Assembly: GCA_900299315.1 (NCBI GenBank)
Contig: OMJI01000097.1
Location: 1-51,621 of the forward strand
DNA from: Verrucomicrobiota bacterium
GTDB lineage: Bacteria; Verrucomicrobiota; Verrucomicrobiia; Palsa-1439
Direction of reading: 5' to 3'
DNA length: 51,621 bases
Part shown: in pieces, positions 25,009 through 34,096 of the stretch
Layout of the letters: each line of letters starts with the position of its first letter
How positions within the stretch are numbered: the first letter of the stretch is position 1
The notes under the pieces: model-generated
What the model saw: the letters and a program-made list of their open reading frames with translations, nothing else
Database searches by the model: none
What the model was told of the DNA's origin: nothing
Program-made: the position numbers and the translations under genes

Positions 25009-25785
25009 GTGGCCATTCATCCCACAGCGATTATCAGTCCCCAAGCCGAACTCGACCCTTCGGTCGAAGTCGGGCCTAACGTGGTGATCGAGACGGGCGT
25101 GAAGATCGGGGCGAGGACACGGATTTGGGCCAACGCCTACATCGCCACCGGCACGGAGTTAGGGTGCGACAATGAAGTGCATATGGGCGCGGTGTTGGGC
25201 CATGAACCGCAAGACTTGGGCTTCAAGCGCGAGACGCGGAGTTTCCTGAAGGTGGGCGACCGGAATGTATTCCGGGAGTATTGCAACGTGCATCGCGGGA
25301 CGCAGCCCGAGAGCGCGACCATTATCGGCCACGATAACTACCTGATGGCCACGAGCCACGTCGGCCACAACAGCGTCATCGGCAACAACGTCATCCTCTG
25401 CAACTGCGCACTGGTGGCCGGTCACGTCCACGTGGGCGACCGGGCGTTCATCTCGGGCGGGGTAGTAATCCACCAATTCATGCAAGTCGGTCGGCTGGCG
25501 ATGCTATCCGGTAACTCCCGCGTCTCGATGGATGTGCCGCCCTTCCTGCTAGCCGCCGAACGAAACGAGATCCACGCCATCAATATCGTCGGGCTGAAAC
25601 GCGCGGATTTTTCCGCGAGCGCGATTGCCGAGATCAAGAAGCTCTTCAAACTCTTCTACCGGTCTTCCCAGAATTTCTCTGAAGCACTGGCCCAAGCAGA
25701 TCAATTCACCACGCCAGAGGCCAAAGAGTTCTTGGATTTCGTCCGCGGTTCCCCAAACGGCATCTGCCCACCGGCTCGCAACTAG
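25009..25785 (+). CDS. lpxA: acyl-ACP--UDP-N-acetylglucosamine O-acyltransferase
   Basis: GTG start; left-handed beta-helix hexapeptide repeats and LpxA-type C-terminal helical domain (IHPTAIISP..., GHDNYLMATSHVGHN). Confidence 0.9.
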   Translation: MAIHPTAIISPQAELDPSVEVGPNVVIETGVKIGARTRIWANAYIATGTELGCDNEVHMGAVLGHEPQDLGFKRETRSFLKVGDRNVFREYCNVHRGTQPESATIIGHDNYLMATSHVGHNSVIGNNVILCNCALVAGHVHVGDRAFISGGVVIHQFMQVGRLAMLSGNSRVSMDVPPFLLAAERNEIHAINIVGLKRADFSASAIAEIKKLFKLFYRSSQNFSEALAQADQFTTPEAKEFLDFVRGSPNGICPPARN

Positions 25786-26801
25786 TAAATCTCCGTGTGT
25801 TCGGGGCTGTGGATCGGGTAGGTAAACATCTCCACCGCGCGGAATCCTTCCGGTGGTTTTACACTTTGGTCGCCCAACCGGTTGAGTGACTCTGCCGCTA
25901 CCGCTCGGACAAAACCGCTCTCGTCGCCGGCAACCTTCCGCAAGTCCGGCACAGCCGCTTTGTCACCGATCAACCCGAGCGCGTACGCTGCCGCGCCCCG
26001 CACATGGTCGTCAGAATCCTGCAGCGCGGCCACAAGCTTGTCGCGGGCTGAGTAGGCCTTGATCTTGCCCAGCGAGAGGGCGGCTTCCCCGCGGACGATG
26101 GGATCTGTATCCGCCAGCGCATTTTGGAGCACCGGGATGTTTTCCCGAGCCGGGTACTTTGCCAGCAGATACATCACGATCCGGCGGGTGTCTGCGTAAG
26201 GATGCTGGGCTAATGCACGAACACGTTCCGGCACAGTCTGGTCACGCAATGCCTCGATGGCCAACAACGCAGAGCGTTCACGCACGGAGTTGTTGAGGTC
26301 GGTCAGCGCATTGATCGCGACCGGCAATGCCGATCGGTCGCCAAGAAATGCCAACCCCCAAAGCGCACGAAAGCGGGCTACCGGCGCAGTGTCTTCCTGC
26401 ACGACCTTGATGATGTCCGGGAGAATAATCCTATCGCCAATCGTGCAAAGTCCCCAAGCCGCAGCAGCTCGAACCCGGTCGTTCTCGTCGCGCAGTACCG
26501 GGCGGAGTGATTCGATTACCGGACGCTCTTTGTATGCCCCGAGATTCCAAGCAGCCAAAGCGCGGACCTCAGGACTGGGATCACGAATCGCCTTCAGAAG
26601 AAGGTCCCGGGCGGCTGGCAGGTTGAGTGATTTTAGCTCACGTACAGCTTGGACGCGCTGGGATTCATCCTTCGACGCCAACCATCGTTCCAAGCGCTGC
26701 AGTCGCCGGTCGCTGGTCGTGGCCGGGGATTGCTGACCGAATGCCAGAGTCGCTGTGGAGAGGACAAACGCGGCCAGCAGTCCTGTGTGCATGAAGTTCA
26801 T
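25782..26801 (-). CDS. secreted HEAT-repeat protein (339 aa)
   Basis: Signal peptide then repeated D...VR..AA.ALG.....A.P.L motifs (PBS-lyase-type HEAT repeats). Confidence 0.8.
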   Translation of the reverse strand: MNFMHTGLLAAFVLSTATLAFGQQSPATTSDRRLQRLERWLASKDESQRVQAVRELKSLNLPAARDLLLKAIRDPSPEVRALAAWNLGAYKERPVIESLRPVLRDENDRVRAAAAWGLCTIGDRIILPDIIKVVQEDTAPVARFRALWGLAFLGDRSALPVAINALTDLNNSVRERSALLAIEALRDQTVPERVRALAQHPYADTRRIVMYLLAKYPARENIPVLQNALADTDPIVRGEAALSLGKIKAYSARDKLVAALQDSDDHVRGAAAYALGLIGDKAAVPDLRKVAGDESGFVRAVAAESLNRLGDQSVKPPEGFRAVEMFTYPIHSPEHTEIY

Positions 26802-26833
26802 GCGAGCAGCGCGTCAACCCTGCCCCGACCGAA

Positions 26834-27937
26834 CTACTTCTTCTTGTTACCGGGGTTGCCGGGCCCTGTGCCGGTACCATCGTTCACTGGCGGATTGCCG
26901 GGAGGCTGCGGGTCTTGGCCATTGCCCAAACCGTTATTCCCTTTTCCACCACCGCCGCCGGTGGAACATGCGCCGAGTGTGTCGCCGTGGGCGAGATGCG
27001 ATTGGACGGCTGATTCAGCGACGTCGATGGTCTTGCCGTTGTGGCAAATGGTCACTTTGCGTTGGGCGCCGTGACCGGTAATTTCCTTCGTGGCCCGAAC
27101 CACGGTGGCTGCCGGCACGGCGGCCGCCGTGATTACTTGGTTGTTTTCCACGCGAACAGAGCTGCTCTCGAGGGCGTCGCGGAGTGGTTTACCGGATGAA
27201 TGCGACGCAAAGGTGTCGGCCATTGACTTCGCCATATCGCGCCATGCGGCCACGACCATACCGACCTGTTCGGCCGTATCGTTGTCTTCCGTGAAGAAGC
27301 TAATCTCGTTCTTCCACTCGCCAAAGTTCAACTCACCTTTCGCCACGACGCTCTTCACCCGCGTTCGCAGGCTGCCGGGAAGGTATTTACCGGCGTTGGG
27401 CATGACGGCCACCACATACAACGGATCCACCGTCATCTCGCGTAGGAACGTCAAATCTCCGCCCAAACCCGCCTCGATCGCGCGTTTCGAAGCGGCCACC
27501 ATCTTGGGATCACCCAAATAGCTGACCCGGTCATAAACCAGACCAAGGATGTTCTCGGCAGAATGGTAGATGTCATCACCAACGCGGGCGTGAATGGTTC
27601 CGTCAGGGTTCAAAACCCCGGCGGCCTGCAATTGGGAATCCCGGAAAAGTTGAACCACCAAGTCTGTCACCTTGCCGGCTTTTTGGCGGTACATGACAAC
27701 CATCACCGAGGGAGTGTCGGGTTCCTTGGAAGCATCCGGTGATTCCAGCAATGCCGCTACCGCGGGAGCCAGCGCGGAATTCTCCGGTAGAGATTGCCGC
27801 AAGAGCGCCACGAAATTGGCCTGCTGACCGGGAACCTCTTGGATCTTGGTGTTAGCTGTCCCCGCTTGGACGATTCCAACCGTAGCCAAGACGCCAGAAG
27901 CCAAGACTGCCAACCCCATCAAAATCTTCTTTTTCAT
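26834..27937 (-). CDS. secreted hypothetical protein with Gly/Asn/Pro-rich C-terminal tail
   Basis: Start trimmed to MKKKILMGLAVLASG signal peptide; distant paralog of the 30021..31055 product; tail GGGGGKGNNGLGNGQDPQPPGNPPVNDGTGTGPGNPGNKKK. Confidence 0.7.
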   Translation of the reverse strand: MKKKILMGLAVLASGVLATVGIVQAGTANTKIQEVPGQQANFVALLRQSLPENSALAPAVAALLESPDASKEPDTPSVMVVMYRQKAGKVTDLVVQLFRDSQLQAAGVLNPDGTIHARVGDDIYHSAENILGLVYDRVSYLGDPKMVAASKRAIEAGLGGDLTFLREMTVDPLYVVAVMPNAGKYLPGSLRTRVKSVVAKGELNFGEWKNEISFFTEDNDTAEQVGMVVAAWRDMAKSMADTFASHSSGKPLRDALESSSVRVENNQVITAAAVPAATVVRATKEITGHGAQRKVTICHNGKTIDVAESAVQSHLAHGDTLGACSTGGGGGKGNNGLGNGQDPQPPGNPPVNDGTGTGPGNPGNKKK

Positions 27938-28051
27938 AGTCACCCCCAGATGCAAATCCGGTGCCATCAACTGAAGTACTTTCACCGATGAGAAAGGGCC
28001 TGTCAAATGGCAAAGGCTTCTGCCGGTGGGCCAAAAAAGTACCTGAAAAGG

Positions 28052-30058
28052 CTAGGGAGTACCGGCAGGGGATTTCCGATTGCGAGCGGCCACGCGCTCT
28101 TTTCGTTCGCTGATCTTTGCCAACGCCTCGACAGCTGCATCGCGAACCAAGCTGTTTTCGTCATTGACGGCTTTGTTGAGCGTATCGACGGTCGACGGGT
28201 CAGCCAACTCGCCGAGCGCCCAAGCGACTGACGCGCGGACTCGCGCTTCGTTTTCTTTCATCAAACGCACATTTTCAGGGACAGAGCCCGCAATTACGCC
28301 CTCTTCAAGGTCACGGGTGGGCACGGCGGCGGTGTAGTAGGGACGAACCGCTTGTTCAAGTGGATCAACTGCGCTGGGATCACGAATTCTTCCAAGAGCA
28401 ACGGCCGATTCCGCACGCAGCCCAGGGTCTTCGGACTTTAGCCCCTTTTGCACGATTGTGCCGACTGCGTCCGGTGACCGCAATGCACCCAAGGCCTGCA
28501 CGACCTGAATCTTCTCCTCAATCTGTTTCTGCCGCACAACCTCCGGGAGGAGTTTCGTATCCGTACCGATTACCAGTCCCTGCTCATCCGATGCGTCTCC
28601 GAGCCGACGTTCGCCGGTAAGAACGGTCAGCAAGGGAGCCACCGCCGTACGATCACCCAACTTGCCAAGGGCTTCAGCGGCCGCACCGCGAACATAACCG
28701 TTCGAATCACGAAGCATAGCAATCAGCTTGGGTACAGCATCATGATCCCCGAGATCGCCAAGTGCTCGCGCCGATGCCGCACGTACATGAGGGTTGGCAT
28801 CGGCGATTTTCTCTTGCAGAGCTTTCGTGCCGCTGCGCTGCTGCAGACCGCGCAATGCTGACACGGCAGTCAAACGAACGTTGGGGTCCGAGTCTTCCAC
28901 GGCCTCCACGATCGCCGGTACCTGTGCGTCGCCGCCAATCGCCCCGAACACCTCCACGATTTTCTGTCGTACTTCTGGATTTTCACTATGCCGATACTCC
29001 GCGAGTTGCGGCAATGCGCTGACAGCCTTGGCTGTCACAATGGCGCGGGCTGCGTGGAACCTGACATCCCGGCTTTCGGCCACAACCGCCTTCACCAGCG
29101 CCGCAACGGCGGCTTCATCGGCGGATGTCGCCAGCGCATCTGCCGCCCGGTCGCGTACAAGGGCATACTCATCATCCTGCAACTTGCTGATAAATGCCTG
29201 GGTGACTTGCGGCCGCTTCTCGGGGTCCTGTCTCACCACTCCCGAAAGCGACATAATAGCCATCGCCCGGACGTGCCAGTCGGAGTCCTTCATGGCATCG
29301 AGCAAAGCGGGTATCGAAGCAGGATCCTTGAGATCACCCATCGTCATGGCCGCAGCGCTTCGCACCAACACACTCGGGTCATGGAGCATCGGGATGATTG
29401 ACGGGACAGCGGCTGGAGTTCCACAGGTTCCGAGCGCCCGGGCAACTTCCATTCGAACGTGCTCGTCGTCATCCCCCAACGCATCGACGAGTTGGGACTC
29501 GACGCTCTTATCTCCCACCCGACAAAGTGTGCCCGCGACGAGGGCGCGAATCTTCGCGTCCGAATTCTTCAGCCCAGTAGCATTGGCGGAAATGGGAGTA
29601 AGACTTTTCAACCGGACCAAAGCCCCGGCGGCAGTCAGACGGACGGTTTCGGTTTTGTCTTCTAGCATCTTCCAGAGAGCAACTGCACCGTCGGATTCAC
29701 CCAAGTCGCCCAGGACCATCGCTACCAATGTCCGGACTTCCACCCGCTCGTCTTCGGCAAGCGCCGAGACTTTCACAACTGACCGCTCCTCATTCTGGAG
29801 GGACGATTGAATAAACTGAACTGCCTCGACTGGATAAAGCCGATCAAAACGCAATCTCTCGTAGGCGCCTGCCAGCTTCGGGTCGCGAGGTGCCGGGGAG
29901 TCAATGCCCCAAGCAGGGGCCAAGAATGCCGAGGTCAGCCCCAGAAGTGTACCGGCCAATAGACTTTTCTTAGACGACAAATGCTTCCTCCCGGACACAA
30001 ATCCAGTCACAGCACCATTTTCAACTCGGATAGCCCGGGCCACGATGGATTCGACCAA
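28052..30058 (-). CDS. secreted HEAT-repeat protein (about 650 aa)
   Basis: About 15 HEAT-like repeats (D.D..VR..AA.ALG.LGD..AVP.L); start uncertain (track start overlaps upstream gene by 38 nt; GTG at 29998 is possible). Confidence 0.8.
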   Translation of the reverse strand: MVESIVARAIRVENGAVTGFVSGRKHLSSKKSLLAGTLLGLTSAFLAPAWGIDSPAPRDPKLAGAYERLRFDRLYPVEAVQFIQSSLQNEERSVVKVSALAEDERVEVRTLVAMVLGDLGESDGAVALWKMLEDKTETVRLTAAGALVRLKSLTPISANATGLKNSDAKIRALVAGTLCRVGDKSVESQLVDALGDDDEHVRMEVARALGTCGTPAAVPSIIPMLHDPSVLVRSAAAMTMGDLKDPASIPALLDAMKDSDWHVRAMAIMSLSGVVRQDPEKRPQVTQAFISKLQDDEYALVRDRAADALATSADEAAVAALVKAVVAESRDVRFHAARAIVTAKAVSALPQLAEYRHSENPEVRQKIVEVFGAIGGDAQVPAIVEAVEDSDPNVRLTAVSALRGLQQRSGTKALQEKIADANPHVRAASARALGDLGDHDAVPKLIAMLRDSNGYVRGAAAEALGKLGDRTAVAPLLTVLTGERRLGDASDEQGLVIGTDTKLLPEVVRQKQIEEKIQVVQALGALRSPDAVGTIVQKGLKSEDPGLRAESAVALGRIRDPSAVDPLEQAVRPYYTAAVPTRDLEEGVIAGSVPENVRLMKENEARVRASVAWALGELADPSTVDTLNKAVNDENSLVRDAAVEALAKISERKERVAARNRKSPAGTP

Positions 30059-31055
30059 TCCCCTTGGAAAGTGCCTGCACGAACTTCGGCAAGGCGCGCT
30101 CGATTACATCGCCAGGCATCATCATCCGACTAATCACAGTTGGCCCTTCCGCGCGAATCTGCGCCCGCGCTAATTGTTGGAGAGCAACCTCCGACTGCTC
30201 GGCGCCAGCGTACCGGACACGACCCACCCCGACCGCCATCATCCGCATGTCAGAAAACAACTGTGCGAGCTCCTCGGCGCGTTTCTGGTCATAGCTCAAT
30301 GCAACAACTTCAGCCCGGGCCTCATCCATCGAAATCTTGCCCTTAATCAGCATGGCTGCGAGATATGGCCGAAACTGGTCCGTCAGCAACAGCCCCGGTT
30401 CGGGTACAACGGCGATGAACGACACCGGGTCGTGGAGGTAGTCTTGAATGACCGGGTATCGGTTATTGAGAACAGCCTCGATGATTTCGCGCTGCTTCTT
30501 CTCTGTCTCGCGGTTGGCGAGAACCAGAATCTCACGACCGGCAAGAGAAAGTGTGGACTGGCCGATAGCGAAGAATCGATCTGGTAACTGCGATTTCCAA
30601 TAGCCCTCCGAACTGAACGCCGGTAGCTTCTCAGGCATCAGGTTCCCGAACACATGAATGGCCACATCACGCAACTCGCCTTCTGCCCGGTAGGTCACCA
30701 ACATCATGGCCACGTCGCCTTGCGCGAGTTTCGGGTCAACGCCAAGCGCTTGCGTCAGTGCTTCCTTGATCTGCTCGAGCAAGGGTGGATTGTCGCCAAA
30801 AGCCATCTGGAGGAACGCCGGGGAGAACTCCTTGCGGGCCGGTGCCTTGACGATCATCTCCTGCCGGCGGACAGCTTCCTGAACGACTTTGCGAACTTGG
30901 TTCGTTTCCAGCACGAGCCTTTTCGCTCGTTCGGTTACATTGAGCGCCAAGACGCCCGCCGCGAGAACGAGCACCACCAGCAGACTCCAAACCACGACAT
31001 TTGCTTTGGTGCCCTTCTTCTTAACGATTGTGGTCGTTTTTCCGCTATTTGCCAT
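30021..31055 (-). CDS. membrane-anchored hypothetical protein (344 aa)
   Basis: Basic N-terminus, one TM helix (VVVWSLLVVLVLAAGVLAL), large extracytoplasmic domain; shares segments with 26834..27937 product (e.g. AMMLVTYRAEGELRDVAIHVF vs VMVVMYRQKAGKVTDLVVQLF). Confidence 0.7.
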   Translation of the reverse strand: MANSGKTTTIVKKKGTKANVVVWSLLVVLVLAAGVLALNVTERAKRLVLETNQVRKVVQEAVRRQEMIVKAPARKEFSPAFLQMAFGDNPPLLEQIKEALTQALGVDPKLAQGDVAMMLVTYRAEGELRDVAIHVFGNLMPEKLPAFSSEGYWKSQLPDRFFAIGQSTLSLAGREILVLANRETEKKQREIIEAVLNNRYPVIQDYLHDPVSFIAVVPEPGLLLTDQFRPYLAAMLIKGKISMDEARAEVVALSYDQKRAEELAQLFSDMRMMAVGVGRVRYAGAEQSEVALQQLARAQIRAEGPTVISRMMMPGDVIERALPKFVQALSKGIGRIHRGPGYPS

Positions 31056-31073: not shown

Positions 31074-31712
31074 CTACTGCGGGGCGATCGAGGCGCCGCC
31101 TTGTCCAAACTTGATCGGCTCATCTTCCCCTAACAACTCCCAACCGGTGTCATAGCCAATCTTATCGGCCACCGATCGCGCAGTCCGGAACGCATCAAAA
31201 CTATCATCTCTAACGAGAAAAGCAATATATTGACTTTGCTTGTCAAGCTGCGCTAGCGCACTCTGGAATAGACCGCTAGGGGCCTGAAGTTGCGTAACCG
31301 CTTCCCCCTTGGAACCCGGTTTAGGCTGCAAGGCCATCACACCCACTAGGAGATACTTGGGGTCAACCGAGTAATCCTGATTTCCAATCTCTTCCCCTTG
31401 AATCGCTTTCAAGAATTGCGAAAGGTCGCCACTACGCACACCGGGATTCATCTGTGACAACTTCTTGGCTACTTGTGAATCGAGCGCATCCTTGTTCACG
31501 TAAAAGACCTCGTGATTCCGGCACTCAAAAAACACAGGGGTCTTGTTCGTTGGCACCGCCCGGGGCGTCGGTTTGAAAACGGGGATCTTCAAAGCCTCTT
31601 GAATGGTGATCAACAACGCAAAGAACAACGCGGCCGTCACCACAGTCACGATGTCGCAGAACGAGACGATCAACATCTCCGGCTCGCCCTTCTTGATTCG
31701 TCGGCGGGGCAT
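31074..31712 (-). CDS. ExbD/TolR-like membrane protein (divergent, 212 aa)
   Basis: Short basic N-terminus, single TM (LIVSFCDIVTVVTAALFFALLIT) then periplasmic domain; assignment rests on architecture and position after a MotA/ExbB gene. Confidence 0.55.
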   Translation of the reverse strand: MPRRRIKKGEPEMLIVSFCDIVTVVTAALFFALLITIQEALKIPVFKPTPRAVPTNKTPVFFECRNHEVFYVNKDALDSQVAKKLSQMNPGVRSGDLSQFLKAIQGEEIGNQDYSVDPKYLLVGVMALQPKPGSKGEAVTQLQAPSGLFQSALAQLDKQSQYIAFLVRDDSFDAFRTARSVADKIGYDTGWELLGEDEPIKFGQGGASIAPQ

Positions 31713-31717
31713 AGTCC

Positions 31718-32215
31718 TTAATCCTCCGATACCTGAAGCGCCTTCGTGGCCTCATCCCAATTGACGCGGAAATCCGCATCAACCGCATCGTAGCCGACGT
31801 CGACAGTTCGCTTTGCGATGCGATTCCGAATGGCCCGGTAGTACTTCAACGACTTGGGACGCACCATCACGACTACGTATTCTTCCGCGCTATGCGCCTC
31901 GACCTTATCGAGCAACTGGTCCACCGGATTGCCAGGGCGCTGTAACTCCTCCCACGAGACATGCTTCGCACCGGGGTAGATGGTAACGTTATTCTCACCG
32001 CAATCAATGTACGAGGGAATCTTGGCATTCTCGACGTTGCCTTTGCCTTCGTACAACCCGGCAAACGCCACGACACGCTTAGCCTTCGGGTTGACCGCGA
32101 TGCGCATGACGATGACGACCATGATCAGGGAGATCAACTTCATCACGATCGCCATGATCGAGAGAAACGGTTCGACGTTGATGTCGATTTTCTCGTATGC
32201 CTTGCGACGCGCCAT
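31718..32215 (-). CDS. ExbD/TolR-like membrane protein (165 aa)
   Basis: IDINVEPFLSIMAIVMKLISLIMVVIV resembles the ExbD INVTPLIDV...TM signature; periplasmic C-domain. Confidence 0.65.
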   Translation of the reverse strand: MARRKAYEKIDINVEPFLSIMAIVMKLISLIMVVIVMRIAVNPKAKRVVAFAGLYEGKGNVENAKIPSYIDCGENNVTIYPGAKHVSWEELQRPGNPVDQLLDKVEAHSAEEYVVVMVRPKSLKYYRAIRNRIAKRTVDVGYDAVDADFRVNWDEATKALQVSED

Positions 32216-32230: not shown

Positions 32231-33961
32231 TTACAGGCTCTCGTCGGCGCGGGCTTCCTGGAACACCACCTTGCGCGGCTTGGACAACTGCTTGAGCAAC
32301 TCGTCGCTCGTGTTGAGGTGACTCCGGATGTTCGCCAGCGTCTGCCGGAACTCCTCGGAACTACCCACCTGACGGAGCGTGCTTTCCATGGATTGCGTGG
32401 TGCGCAACACCTTGTCGATTTCGTTGCCGAGTTTCGTGACCGCCTCCAACTGATCCACCAACGCCTGCGCCGAGTTCCTAATCTGCTCGGAGTAACGCTG
32501 GCTGGCGGAGTCGAGTGCCTGCACGGACTTCGTGAAGTTTTCGGACAGACGGACCGACAACTGGTTGAAGTCGGAAACCATCTTCTCCCAGCGTTGGATT
32601 TCCTTGCGATCGAGTTCCTGAACTGCCTCGACGTACTTGTCGTGAGCGTCGCTCATGGCCTCGTTCTGTTCCTTGCCCAGCGTGGCAATCTGCTCCGTCA
32701 ACTCCTCAAACTTCTCCGCCAGTTTCTGCTCGTTGCGGGCAAACACTTCGAGGTTCTTCTCCTGCGTCTTGCGGAACTCATCCATCATCTTCGCGGCACC
32801 GGAATTAAAATTACCGGCCACGCCTTCGAGCTTGCCGCCAAGCTGTGAGCCCAACTCGCTCACCCGTCGTTCGTAATTGGTCTGGAACTCCTCGTACTTC
32901 TGATTGATCGCATCTGCAGCCTTCGTAACGGCGCGCGTGAAAACTTCCTCATACCGGTCGGGATTGGGTAACCGCCGGAATCCAGCATCGATTGCTTGGG
33001 CCAACTCTTCCACCGGGAATTTCGTCTGTGCCTCCAAGCCGGACAAACCCTCACGGATAGCATTGGTCAACTCCTCAACAGGGAACTTGCCCACCGGACC
33101 ACCACCACCACCGCCGCCGCCACCACCGGAAGGCATGCGCGACAAGAGCCGGTCTTCCACCAGCTCATCGATCTCGGCGAGCACCTCTTCCTCTTTTCGT
33201 TCCGCACCCAAGCTGGGGAACGCAGCCATACCAGCGGTCAACAGACCCAGCAGCGTGCAGTAAAACGCCACCGCCAAGCCTTCGGTGATGTGACCGACTT
33301 GGACTTTGATGCCTTCCGCCGTGACGCCGGCACCCGCCAAGAATTCAGCGAAGCCACCGATACCAGCCGCGACACCGAACACCGTACCAACGAACCCGAG
33401 CAGCGGCATCGCCCAGATGAACAACCGGTTCTTCCGGTAGGACGAATCGGACGCCACCGCGTCCAAGCCGGCCTGTTCGCGGGCGTACTCAGCCGTCCGC
33501 TCAAAATCCCGCGTGTTGATCCACATCGCCAATACGCGCGCGACGCGCGTCAGACCGAGACTGTTCGTGAGATTGGGGTTGGACTTGATTCGCTCGTAGA
33601 CCGAGATCAACTCATCCTCATTGGTGAAGTCGAGATTGTCCGGCAACTGAATCTCCCCAATCATCTGCTTCTCCTTCTTGATGCGCGATATCTTGAGGAT
33701 GATGTTCAGGGTCGACAGCGCCCACACAAACAACGTCGTGCCTTGGAAGATCAGACGTTCGATATTAAATGTGTGCTCGCCTTTCCGATTGCCCAAGATC
33801 AAGTCGCGGACAAACCAGTTTGGACCCACATACAAGATCGCGCAGAAGATCGCCACGAACGCAAGCGCCCCGCCGATCATGACCATTGTCGGGACTTCCG
33901 TGTGGGGACGCTCGTGGGTTGGAAACTCAACTTTCTTGAAATCAGAGACTTCAGTAGCCAT
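32231..33961 (-). CDS. MotA/TolQ/ExbB-family proton channel protein with poly-Gly linker and long coiled-coil C-terminal extension
   Basis: TM helices plus MotA_ExbB core (WAMPLLGFVGTVFGV...ITEGLAVAFYCTLLGLL), then GGGGGGGGGG (nt 33098-33127), duplicated KFPVEEL motif and about 270 aa of heptad-like helical sequence. Confidence 0.85.
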   Translation of the reverse strand: MATEVSDFKKVEFPTHERPHTEVPTMVMIGGALAFVAIFCAILYVGPNWFVRDLILGNRKGEHTFNIERLIFQGTTLFVWALSTLNIILKISRIKKEKQMIGEIQLPDNLDFTNEDELISVYERIKSNPNLTNSLGLTRVARVLAMWINTRDFERTAEYAREQAGLDAVASDSSYRKNRLFIWAMPLLGFVGTVFGVAAGIGGFAEFLAGAGVTAEGIKVQVGHITEGLAVAFYCTLLGLLTAGMAAFPSLGAERKEEEVLAEIDELVEDRLLSRMPSGGGGGGGGGGPVGKFPVEELTNAIREGLSGLEAQTKFPVEELAQAIDAGFRRLPNPDRYEEVFTRAVTKAADAINQKYEEFQTNYERRVSELGSQLGGKLEGVAGNFNSGAAKMMDEFRKTQEKNLEVFARNEQKLAEKFEELTEQIATLGKEQNEAMSDAHDKYVEAVQELDRKEIQRWEKMVSDFNQLSVRLSENFTKSVQALDSASQRYSEQIRNSAQALVDQLEAVTKLGNEIDKVLRTTQSMESTLRQVGSSEEFRQTLANIRSHLNTSDELLKQLSKPRKVVFQEARADESL

Positions 33962-34068: not shown

Positions 34069-34096
34069 ATAATATCGTCCGAGTTGTGCTTGTCAA
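34069..34096 (-). promoter_or_regulatory. sigma-70-type promoter candidate for the MotA-like cluster
   Basis: Minus strand TTGACA (34096-34091), 16-nt spacer, TATTAT (34074-34069), about 100 nt upstream of ATG 33961. Confidence 0.35.

Follow-up and report, generated by a model that had tools for sequence, protein, structure and literature searches.

What does a channel subunit of the ExbB/TolQ/MotA class do with a long tail in the cytoplasm? This question is raised by a gene, here called gene A, on a 51,621-nucleotide (nt) stretch of DNA from a Verrucomicrobiota bacterium (contig OMJI01000097.1 of assembly GCA_900299315.1; the window below means this whole stretch). Gene A occupies positions 32231–33961 on the minus strand, as do all features of the window with coordinates given below. 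It encodes 576 amino acids (aa), a channel subunit of ExbB/TolQ/MotA fold followed by a cytoplasmic tail, as judged from its open reading frame (ORF), full-length homologues and an AlphaFold2 (AF2) model compared with known structures by Foldseek. We consider it fairly probable that the gene A protein forms the pentameric channel of a hitherto uncharacterised 5:2 ion motor of the ExbB/TolQ/MotA class and that it carries a modular cytoplasmic stalk. The axle of this motor is probably a heterodimer of the products of the next two genes, B1 and B2, of which only B2 has a protonatable Asp in its transmembrane (TM) helix. So far, this type of motor has been found in Verrucomicrobiota only.

Gene A and its homologues

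A search of 5.8 billion proteins recovered 213 relatives of the gene A protein, which came from Verrucomicrobia-type metagenomes throughout. The best 120 of the 213 were 46–69% identical to it, and most of them spanned 94–100% of the query including the tail. In a scan of one genome per species we found 36 loci, in metagenome-assembled genomes (MAGs) of Verrucomicrobiia and of Lentisphaerota, the latter with approx. 42% identity. None of the relatives found was a cultured or studied representative.

The first-pass annotation of the window, made from the sequence, had raised the concern that a sequencing error or frameshift might have fused two genes. Such a joining at the Gly-codon repeat between channel and tail is conceivable in principle, because a run of GGT/GGC triplets is prone to slippage and the source genome is a fragmented MAG of 320 contigs. 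The repeat is nevertheless in frame, and relatives carry the same fusion without the Gly run. Homologues from independent assemblies also have the same domain order. Because most of the best 120 homologues cover 94–100% of the query, channel and tail together, we ruled out a fusion artefact and regard its probability as negligible.

The channel domain

The gene A protein was modelled with AF2 as a monomer from an alignment of 54 sequences. The channel domain (aa 1–275, positions 33137–33961) was modelled with a predicted local distance difference test (pLDDT) score of approx. 90 and comprises four predicted TM helices, the fourth (TM4) being extended as an acidic helix to aa 275. Foldseek matched this domain with a probability of 1.0 to ExbB (9ddo, 5sv0), TolQ (8vlw), ZorA (8vvn) and MotA (6ysl). 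The TM-scores were 0.54–0.62 against ExbB, TolQ and ZorA (0.61 for TolQ 8vlw and 0.62 for ZorA 8vvn), and the MotA structures were a poorer match with 0.44. On the basis of the model we concluded that the N-terminal domain has the predicted ExbB/TolQ/ZorA/MotA fold, which bears out the homology to MotA/ExbB proposed in the first-pass annotation.

Six residues, W183, P186, G189, T193, T226 and T236, were invariant among the 54 sequences, and four of them (P186, T193, T226 and T236) are situated in the last two TM helices. From their position within the match to Pfam family PF01618 we infer that the Thr and Pro residues of the channel may be equivalent to T148/T181 of ExbB. PF01618 is on record for many close homologues of gene A, and one distant relative (P0136) scored 34.7 bits. 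Since the source genome already has five canonical PF01618 genes, gene A is a sixth, divergent paralogue of this type.

A VEFPTHxRPxT motif is conserved in the cytoplasmic N-terminus of the protein (aa 1–24, positions 33890–33961). At its core is an FP similar to that of the FPxEEL modules described below for the tail, and it is conceivable that the N-terminus interacts with the base of the tail.

The linker and the modules of the tail

Channel and tail are connected by a variable linker (aa 276–291, positions 33089–33136) with a pLDDT below 50. Within it lie the ten consecutive glycines that had been noticed before at nt 33098–33127 (aa 279–288, codons (GGT)2(GGC)3(GGT)5) and that had been taken for a hinge. 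As a hinge the run did not stand up: it was present in 0 of 53 aligned homologues, in which the linker consists of 5–14 variable residues behind a conserved MPS/LPT, and two genomes of the same genus have LPTPAEQAKEEFPL at this position and no Gly run. Neither the length nor the sequence of the linker is conserved across the family, and its mean majority-residue frequency was 0.56. We regard the run as an apparent species-specific linker expansion of little consequence and not as a conserved hinge. It is best read as a recent triplet-repeat expansion by slippage in a tolerant linker.

The tail, cytoplasmic by topology, has no Pfam or NCBIfam model, and the same was found for B1, B2 and protein C, the product of the gene after B2. 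It begins with short-helix modules of the pattern FPxEEL. The two copies of KFPVEEL(T/A)(N/Q)AI named in the first-pass annotation are KFPVEELTNAI at aa 292–302 and KFPVEELAQAI at aa 314–324. The first module (aa 292–313, positions 33023–33088) was moderately conserved in alignments A1 and A2. The second opens the base motif (aa 314–343, positions 32933–33022), in which it is joined to AIDAGFRRLPNPDRYEEVF. The pattern of the base motif, FPxEEL...RLPxPxRY (AIDAGFRRLPNPDRY), is almost invariant. FPxEEL copies differ in number: distant relatives have one, most proteins two, a Lentisphaerota copy four and the relative P0119 approx. five. The base motif is followed by a helical rod (aa 344–505, positions 32447–32932) and by a tip module at the C-terminus (aa 506–576, positions 32234–32446; ...LGNEIDKVLRTTQSMEStLRQVGSSEEFRQTLANiRSHLxxSDELLKQLSKPRKVVFQE), which ends in the pattern ...SKPRxVxFQE.

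Conservation was compared as the mean majority-residue frequency. It was 0.68 for the channel (aa 25–275), 0.62 for the first FPVEEL module (aa 292–313), 0.93 for the base motif (aa 314–343), 0.72–0.77 for the rod (aa 344–511) and 0.88 for the tip (0.88 also over aa 512–570). The base motif is thus the most conserved part of the protein, and conservation is higher in the tail than in the channel domain. The earlier worry that the tail might not be conserved among orthologs was therefore unfounded.

Helices, hydrophobic seam and length of the rod

As had been expected from the sequence, the tail is charged and predicted to be helical up to the stop codon: AF2 placed aa 334–559 in three helices (aa 334–409, 414–532 and 536–559) with a helix break at 410–413, at a pLDDT of 50–73. 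It contains 50 Asp+Glu and 40 Lys+Arg and is net acidic. Large hydrophobic residues make up 27%, which suggests a narrow seam.

The three predicted helices would suit another reading of the tail. Each tail could fold alone into an antiparallel hairpin or bundle, like an apolipoprotein or a chemoreceptor, and serve as a regulatory or scaffold domain under or beside the motor, with no five-chain stalk. Sub-threshold Pfam and Protein Data Bank (PDB) matches to apolipoprotein A-I and ApoLp-III point in the same direction, as does the flexible linker, by which the tail is uncoupled from TM4. Proteins with only one or two TM helices carry tail modules as well, and the oligomeric state of such a tail need not be five. 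The apolipoprotein matches were far under the cut-off (17.9 vs 90 bits). The periodicity and the length of the rod speak against a hairpin as well.

The hydrophobic periodicity of the tail peaked at 3.63–3.64 residues in 54 of 54 aligned family members, with almost no power at 3.5, and the value of 3.64 was reached by none of 500 shuffled sequences. The heptad-like character formerly ascribed to the tail did not hold on this point, and we rejected a heptad coiled coil. The rod has instead a single continuous hydrophobic seam. With a period of 3.642 residues the phase of the seam stayed at 89–139 degrees from aa 330, inside the base motif, to approx. aa 505, which corresponds to approx. 175 residues or approx. 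48 turns. Over this range it kept within approx. 25 degrees of its mean, and it was unbroken across the predicted helix break at 410–413. Past aa 505 the phase drifted and the amplitude fell. From this we concluded that the tip is differently organised.

The length of the rod follows the same period. Within the close family the distances from base to tip were 229, 269, 291, 302, 313, 207 and 225 residues. The corresponding changes of +40, +62, +73, +84, −22 and −4 residues were each near an integer number of helical turns. Among all tail carriers the distance between the PxP in the base motif and the KPR in the tip took 35 distinct values between 105 and 342 residues. These lengths were periodic at 3.642 residues (R = 0.75), and 0 of 1000 random length sets matched this. 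Thus base and tip are always separated by an integral number of helical turns. Judged from these sequences, the whole-turn spacing argues for a stiff continuous helix with angular register, and against a disordered or loosely jointed spacer. The changes are whole-turn insertions or deletions at single sites and not paired changes in two arms, as opposed to what a hairpin would lead one to expect. Given the continuous seam and the whole-turn changes we regard a tail that folds alone as less likely and, on balance, rather unlikely; it is still the main rival to the stalk.

The insertions in the rod are made up of 11-residue units, and the tail also has repeat units of 29 residues. Such 11- and 29-residue units and a period of 3.64 are typical of amphipathic helices of the apolipoprotein, perilipin and synuclein type. 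Together with the sub-threshold apolipoprotein-type matches they would also fit a tail that lies on the inner leaflet and senses or shapes the membrane round the motor. For a surface helix it is not obvious what role a strict angular register of the tip to the base would have, and the net acidic composition with 27% large hydrophobic residues suits a soluble bundle better than an anionic membrane. We therefore consider a membrane-lying tail very unlikely.

The partner subunits B1 and B2

Gene A is followed by B1 (positions 31718–32215, 165 aa) and B2 (positions 31074–31712, 212 aa). The two proteins are paralogous (BLASTP E = 3e-8, hhalign 97%), and each has one N-terminal TM helix, a topology like that of ExbD. 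In the TM helix of B2 an Asp (Asp20, in SFCD) was invariant in 25 of 25 sequences, and B2 is the candidate proton-binding axle subunit. The TM helix of B1 has no acidic residue and no counterpart of Asp20.

A, B1 and B2 were found together in all 46 loci with enough flanking sequence, including seven genomes from other classes of the phylum, in which gene A is 26–42% identical. B1 is located directly 3' of A in most loci with room for it. In the two distant genomes with loci L062 and L064, an extra gene for a secreted protein of approx. 700 aa is located between A and B1, so that the trio tolerates an inserted periplasmic component.

Proposed mechanism

In the motor that we favour, a pentamer of A would surround the B1–B2 heterodimer. 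Protons would pass via Asp20 of B2 and the Thr/Pro ring of A, and their passage would power relative rotation in the manner of other 5:2 motors. The machine's periplasmic side would consist of protein C, the HEAT-repeat proteins encoded further downstream, and the periplasmic domains of B1 and B2. On the cytoplasmic side, the C-terminal 290 residues of A would form a stalk in the order TM4 extension, short flexible linker, one to five FPxEEL helices, base motif, rod and tip. The five tails would most probably bundle, near-straight or slightly right-handed, over approx. 25 nm (170 residues × 0.15 nm), and within the bundle the angular register of the tip to the base would be fixed. The tip could then couple the motor to a putative cytoplasmic partner or anchor. 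It would either transmit rotation or state, like the tail of ZorA, or hold back the A ring and so let the axle turn.

To our knowledge, the characterised 5:2 ion motors other than Zorya direct their work into the periplasm or onto the flagellar rotor. Gene A, with its stalk, belongs to a housekeeping operon that also encodes periplasmic partners. If the proposal is true, a second, unrelated lineage of motors would possess a long, strongly conserved stalk in the cytoplasm, and this would point to repeated evolution of output, or input, on the cytoplasmic side. The quantised length of the rod provides a concrete hypothesis of register-dependent function. A stronger form of the proposal takes the tail as a rigid, register-preserving shaft through which the cytoplasm would read the rotation or state of a housekeeping 5:2 proton motor, a ZorA-style design that would be general in bacteria of the Planctomycetota–Verrucomicrobiota–Chlamydiota (PVC) group and not peculiar to phage defence. 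This is possible and we put it forward tentatively, as a doubtful extension.

Several observations weigh against the motor and its stalk. The gene A protein itself matched PF01618 only weakly (17.3 bits vs a cut-off of 22.9, aa 184–249). The tail was modelled as a monomer only, with the pLDDT of 50–73 given above, and its pentameric bundle is hypothetical. The flexible linker and the proline-bounded modules between rod and TM4, unlike the arrangement in ZorA, make a rigid transmission of torque less convincing. The operon encodes no cytoplasmic partner, and the transmission of rotation to such a partner, proposed already in the first-pass annotation, is what we infer by analogy. The axle role of B1 and B2 rests on position, topology and one Asp. 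Compared by hhalign with the ExbD proteins of the same genome they gave 0.2% and 1.1%, and the AF2 model of B2 (pLDDT 82) retrieved no ExbD, TolR or MotB in Foldseek and no match better than E = 0.07. The Pfam ExbD model gave a weak match to B2 (E = 0.11) and to B2 only. The system is missing from five genera of its own family and is thus dispensable. Finally, tail modules occur on membrane proteins without channel motifs and without B subunits, so that a motor is not strictly required for what the tail does.

Comparison with Zorya

The likeness of the tail to that of ZorA in Zorya defence systems had been pointed out in the first-pass annotation. According to passages of PMC11946911, the ZorA tail has 500 residues, forms a pentameric right-handed coiled coil of approx. 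70 nm and is needed for the signal to ZorC and ZorD. Both proteins share the fold of the A subunit of a 5:2 motor and a long helical cytoplasmic tail of variable length with a seam that is not a pure heptad. The tail of a genuine ZorA had a mixed periodicity of 3.54 and 3.64 residues, which makes the two tails physically similar objects.

Could gene A then encode a diverged ZorA, an anti-phage sensor of the Zorya type with its effectors encoded elsewhere? Besides the shared architecture and the 3.64 component of genuine ZorA tails, the best PADLOC and NCBIfam matches of gene A were ZorA models (PADLOC E = 8e-7 to 1e-3), and one distant relative matched ZorA_2 over channel and tail with E = 7e-5. 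The matches of gene A itself covered the tail only. They scored 18–26 bits against cut-offs of 100–250 (18.4 bits vs 190 for the NCBIfam model NF033914) and stood beside matches to other coiled-coil families (LmuB, PDC-S06). A genuine ZorA was found in one of 301 sampled genomes of the phylum. The hhalign comparison of this same-class ZorA with the family profile gave a probability of 6.7%. Because the matches were tail-only and below cut-off, and because of this hhalign result, we rejected them as evidence that gene A belongs to the ZorA family.

The surroundings of gene A agree with this. A ZorB-type peptidoglycan-binding partner was not detected at the locus by Pfam searches with B1 and B2, which gave no OmpA-family or MotB match at E up to 10. 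None of the five downstream genes had a PADLOC match to ZorC, ZorD or ZorE, and upstream are recO and a DUF502 gene. AF2 predicted no beta-hairpin in the cytoplasmic loop of gene A, which is a further difference from ZorA. The ZorA tail continues straight from the last TM helix, whereas in gene A the flexible linker and the FPxEEL modules lie between. The operon of gene A is vertically inherited with strict housekeeping synteny, is single-copy within one bacterial family and has periplasmic HEAT-repeat partners. An anti-phage sensor of the Zorya type is accordingly a highly improbable explanation. What remains of the earlier comparison is a long cytoplasmic stalk on the A subunit of a 5:2 motor: the resemblance is architectural only, without specific homology.

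Comparison with other known systems

The best structural matches for aa 1–275 were ExbB–ExbD and TolQ–TolR (9ddo, 5sv0, 8vlw). Like these systems, gene A has Thr and Pro residues conserved in its last two TM helices. Its operon likewise encodes accessory proteins of the periplasm, and a single-pass partner that carries an Asp in the TM helix is encoded downstream. It differs from them in its four predicted TM helices, in the 290-residue tail and in the periplasmic domains of B1 and B2, which are not recognisably of the ExbD fold. Among the operon proteins no TonB or TolA transducer was matched by Pfam, and the TM helix of protein C contains no His/SHLS motif. No genes for TolB/Pal or a TonB-dependent receptor were adjacent to gene A. 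The absence of an OmpA-like domain from B1 and B2 also sets the system apart from the MotAB stator. PDB sequence searches with A, B1, B2 and C returned apolipoprotein-type or chance matches only.

Elsewhere in the same genome (locus L009, contig C223), one of the five canonical MotA/ExbB genes has a large secreted extension at the N-terminus; its open frame comprises 668 aa (632-aa ORF). Next come genes for an ExbD and for a TonB-like, proline-rich protein.

Passages of PMC12204202 describe operons of PVC bacteria with a gene for a tetratricopeptide repeat (TPR) protein, a gene like tolQ, two heterologous tolR-like genes and transducers with von Willebrand factor A (vWA) domains. The gene A operon resembles these, as far as they are described there, in the bacterial group, in the order of a tolQ-like gene followed by an unlike tolR-like pair, and in a helical-repeat periplasmic protein. 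It differs in having no vWA protein and HEAT instead of TPR repeats, and the A subunit in those passages has no long tail, unlike gene A. Non-flagellar relatives of MotA/ExbB, the A subunits of 'generic ion transporters', often have N- or C-terminal extensions of unknown function according to passages of PMC12505986. The examples named there are DUF3450 and DUF2341, and those passages contain no description of such a tail or of a base-rod-tip arrangement. A description of the gene A tail or operon was not found in the literature, including the consulted passages of PMC11946911, PMC12505986 and PMC12204202. The present analysis contributes the unconserved Gly10 run, the variable number of FPxEEL modules, the base-rod-tip organisation, the continuous seam of 3.64 residues, the whole-turn lengths of the rod and the reuse of the tail without a motor.

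Tails on other membrane proteins

Proteins with the same tail were sought with the tail only, in an exhaustive search against 1.8 billion representatives. This gave 136 matches of 47–601 aa with the tip module at the C-terminus. A word-indexed search with the tip alone returned the same family only, and the distant carriers were reached by the exhaustive search. Some of the carriers are shorter MotA-like proteins. Others are membrane proteins of 250–520 aa, in which the channel helices are degenerate or only one or two TM helices are present, and which have kept the base motif and the tip. By their sequences, the base-rod-tip module thus appears to be reused on membrane anchors without a motor. 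No clue to function came from the distant proteins that have the tail only.

Stand-alone tail genes without B subunits were observed at L050 (3544–4959) and L051 (2285–3454). In both of these loci, which were examined for their neighbours, the tail gene is divergent from an adjoining gene of the FGE-sulfatase family.

The operon and its surroundings

Downstream of B2 lie four further genes of the cluster. Protein C (positions 30021–31055, 344 aa) is TM-anchored and periplasmic and belongs to no known family; it had no Pfam match, and a PDB profile search was empty. It is followed by a secreted HEAT-repeat protein (positions 28052–30058, ORF of 668 aa; Pfam HEAT_2, E = 4e-88). Both genes are syntenic in the Verrucomicrobiia loci, where a TM-anchored C-type protein and a secreted HEAT-repeat protein invariably come after the trio. 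Next is C2 (positions 26834–28006, 390 aa), a secreted paralogue of C (BLASTP E = 3e-12). A second secreted HEAT-repeat protein (positions 25782–26801, 339 aa), assigned from its ORF and sequence, ends the cluster and is convergent with lpxA. The region 25782–31055 thereby consists of two successive pairs, each with a periplasmic protein of no known family and then a secreted HEAT-repeat protein. The second pair, C2 with its HEAT-repeat protein, is present in many related loci and missing from others.

The neighbours of the cluster are housekeeping genes, recO and DUF502 upstream and lpxA downstream. The tail-bearing gene A is single-copy and was found in 31 of 44 genomes of its own family. 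We concluded that this is a housekeeping operon that is vertically inherited and keeps its synteny.

The only intergenic gap of any size, which measures 143 nt and lies upstream of gene A, contains a candidate sigma-70-like promoter at positions 34069–34096 (TTGACA-16-TATTAT, 11 of 12 matches). It is a consensus match only, and the total count of promoter-type matches in the region was not above the shuffled expectation. Its position suggests that the gene A cluster may be transcribed independently of recO.

In four loci of Lentisphaerota-type and other non-Verrucomicrobiia genomes (L041, L061, L064 and L001) the A-B1-B2 trio adjoins a gene for a D-2-hydroxyacid dehydrogenase. In L061 the trio is also followed by genes for a secretin, a GspE-like and a GspF-like protein.

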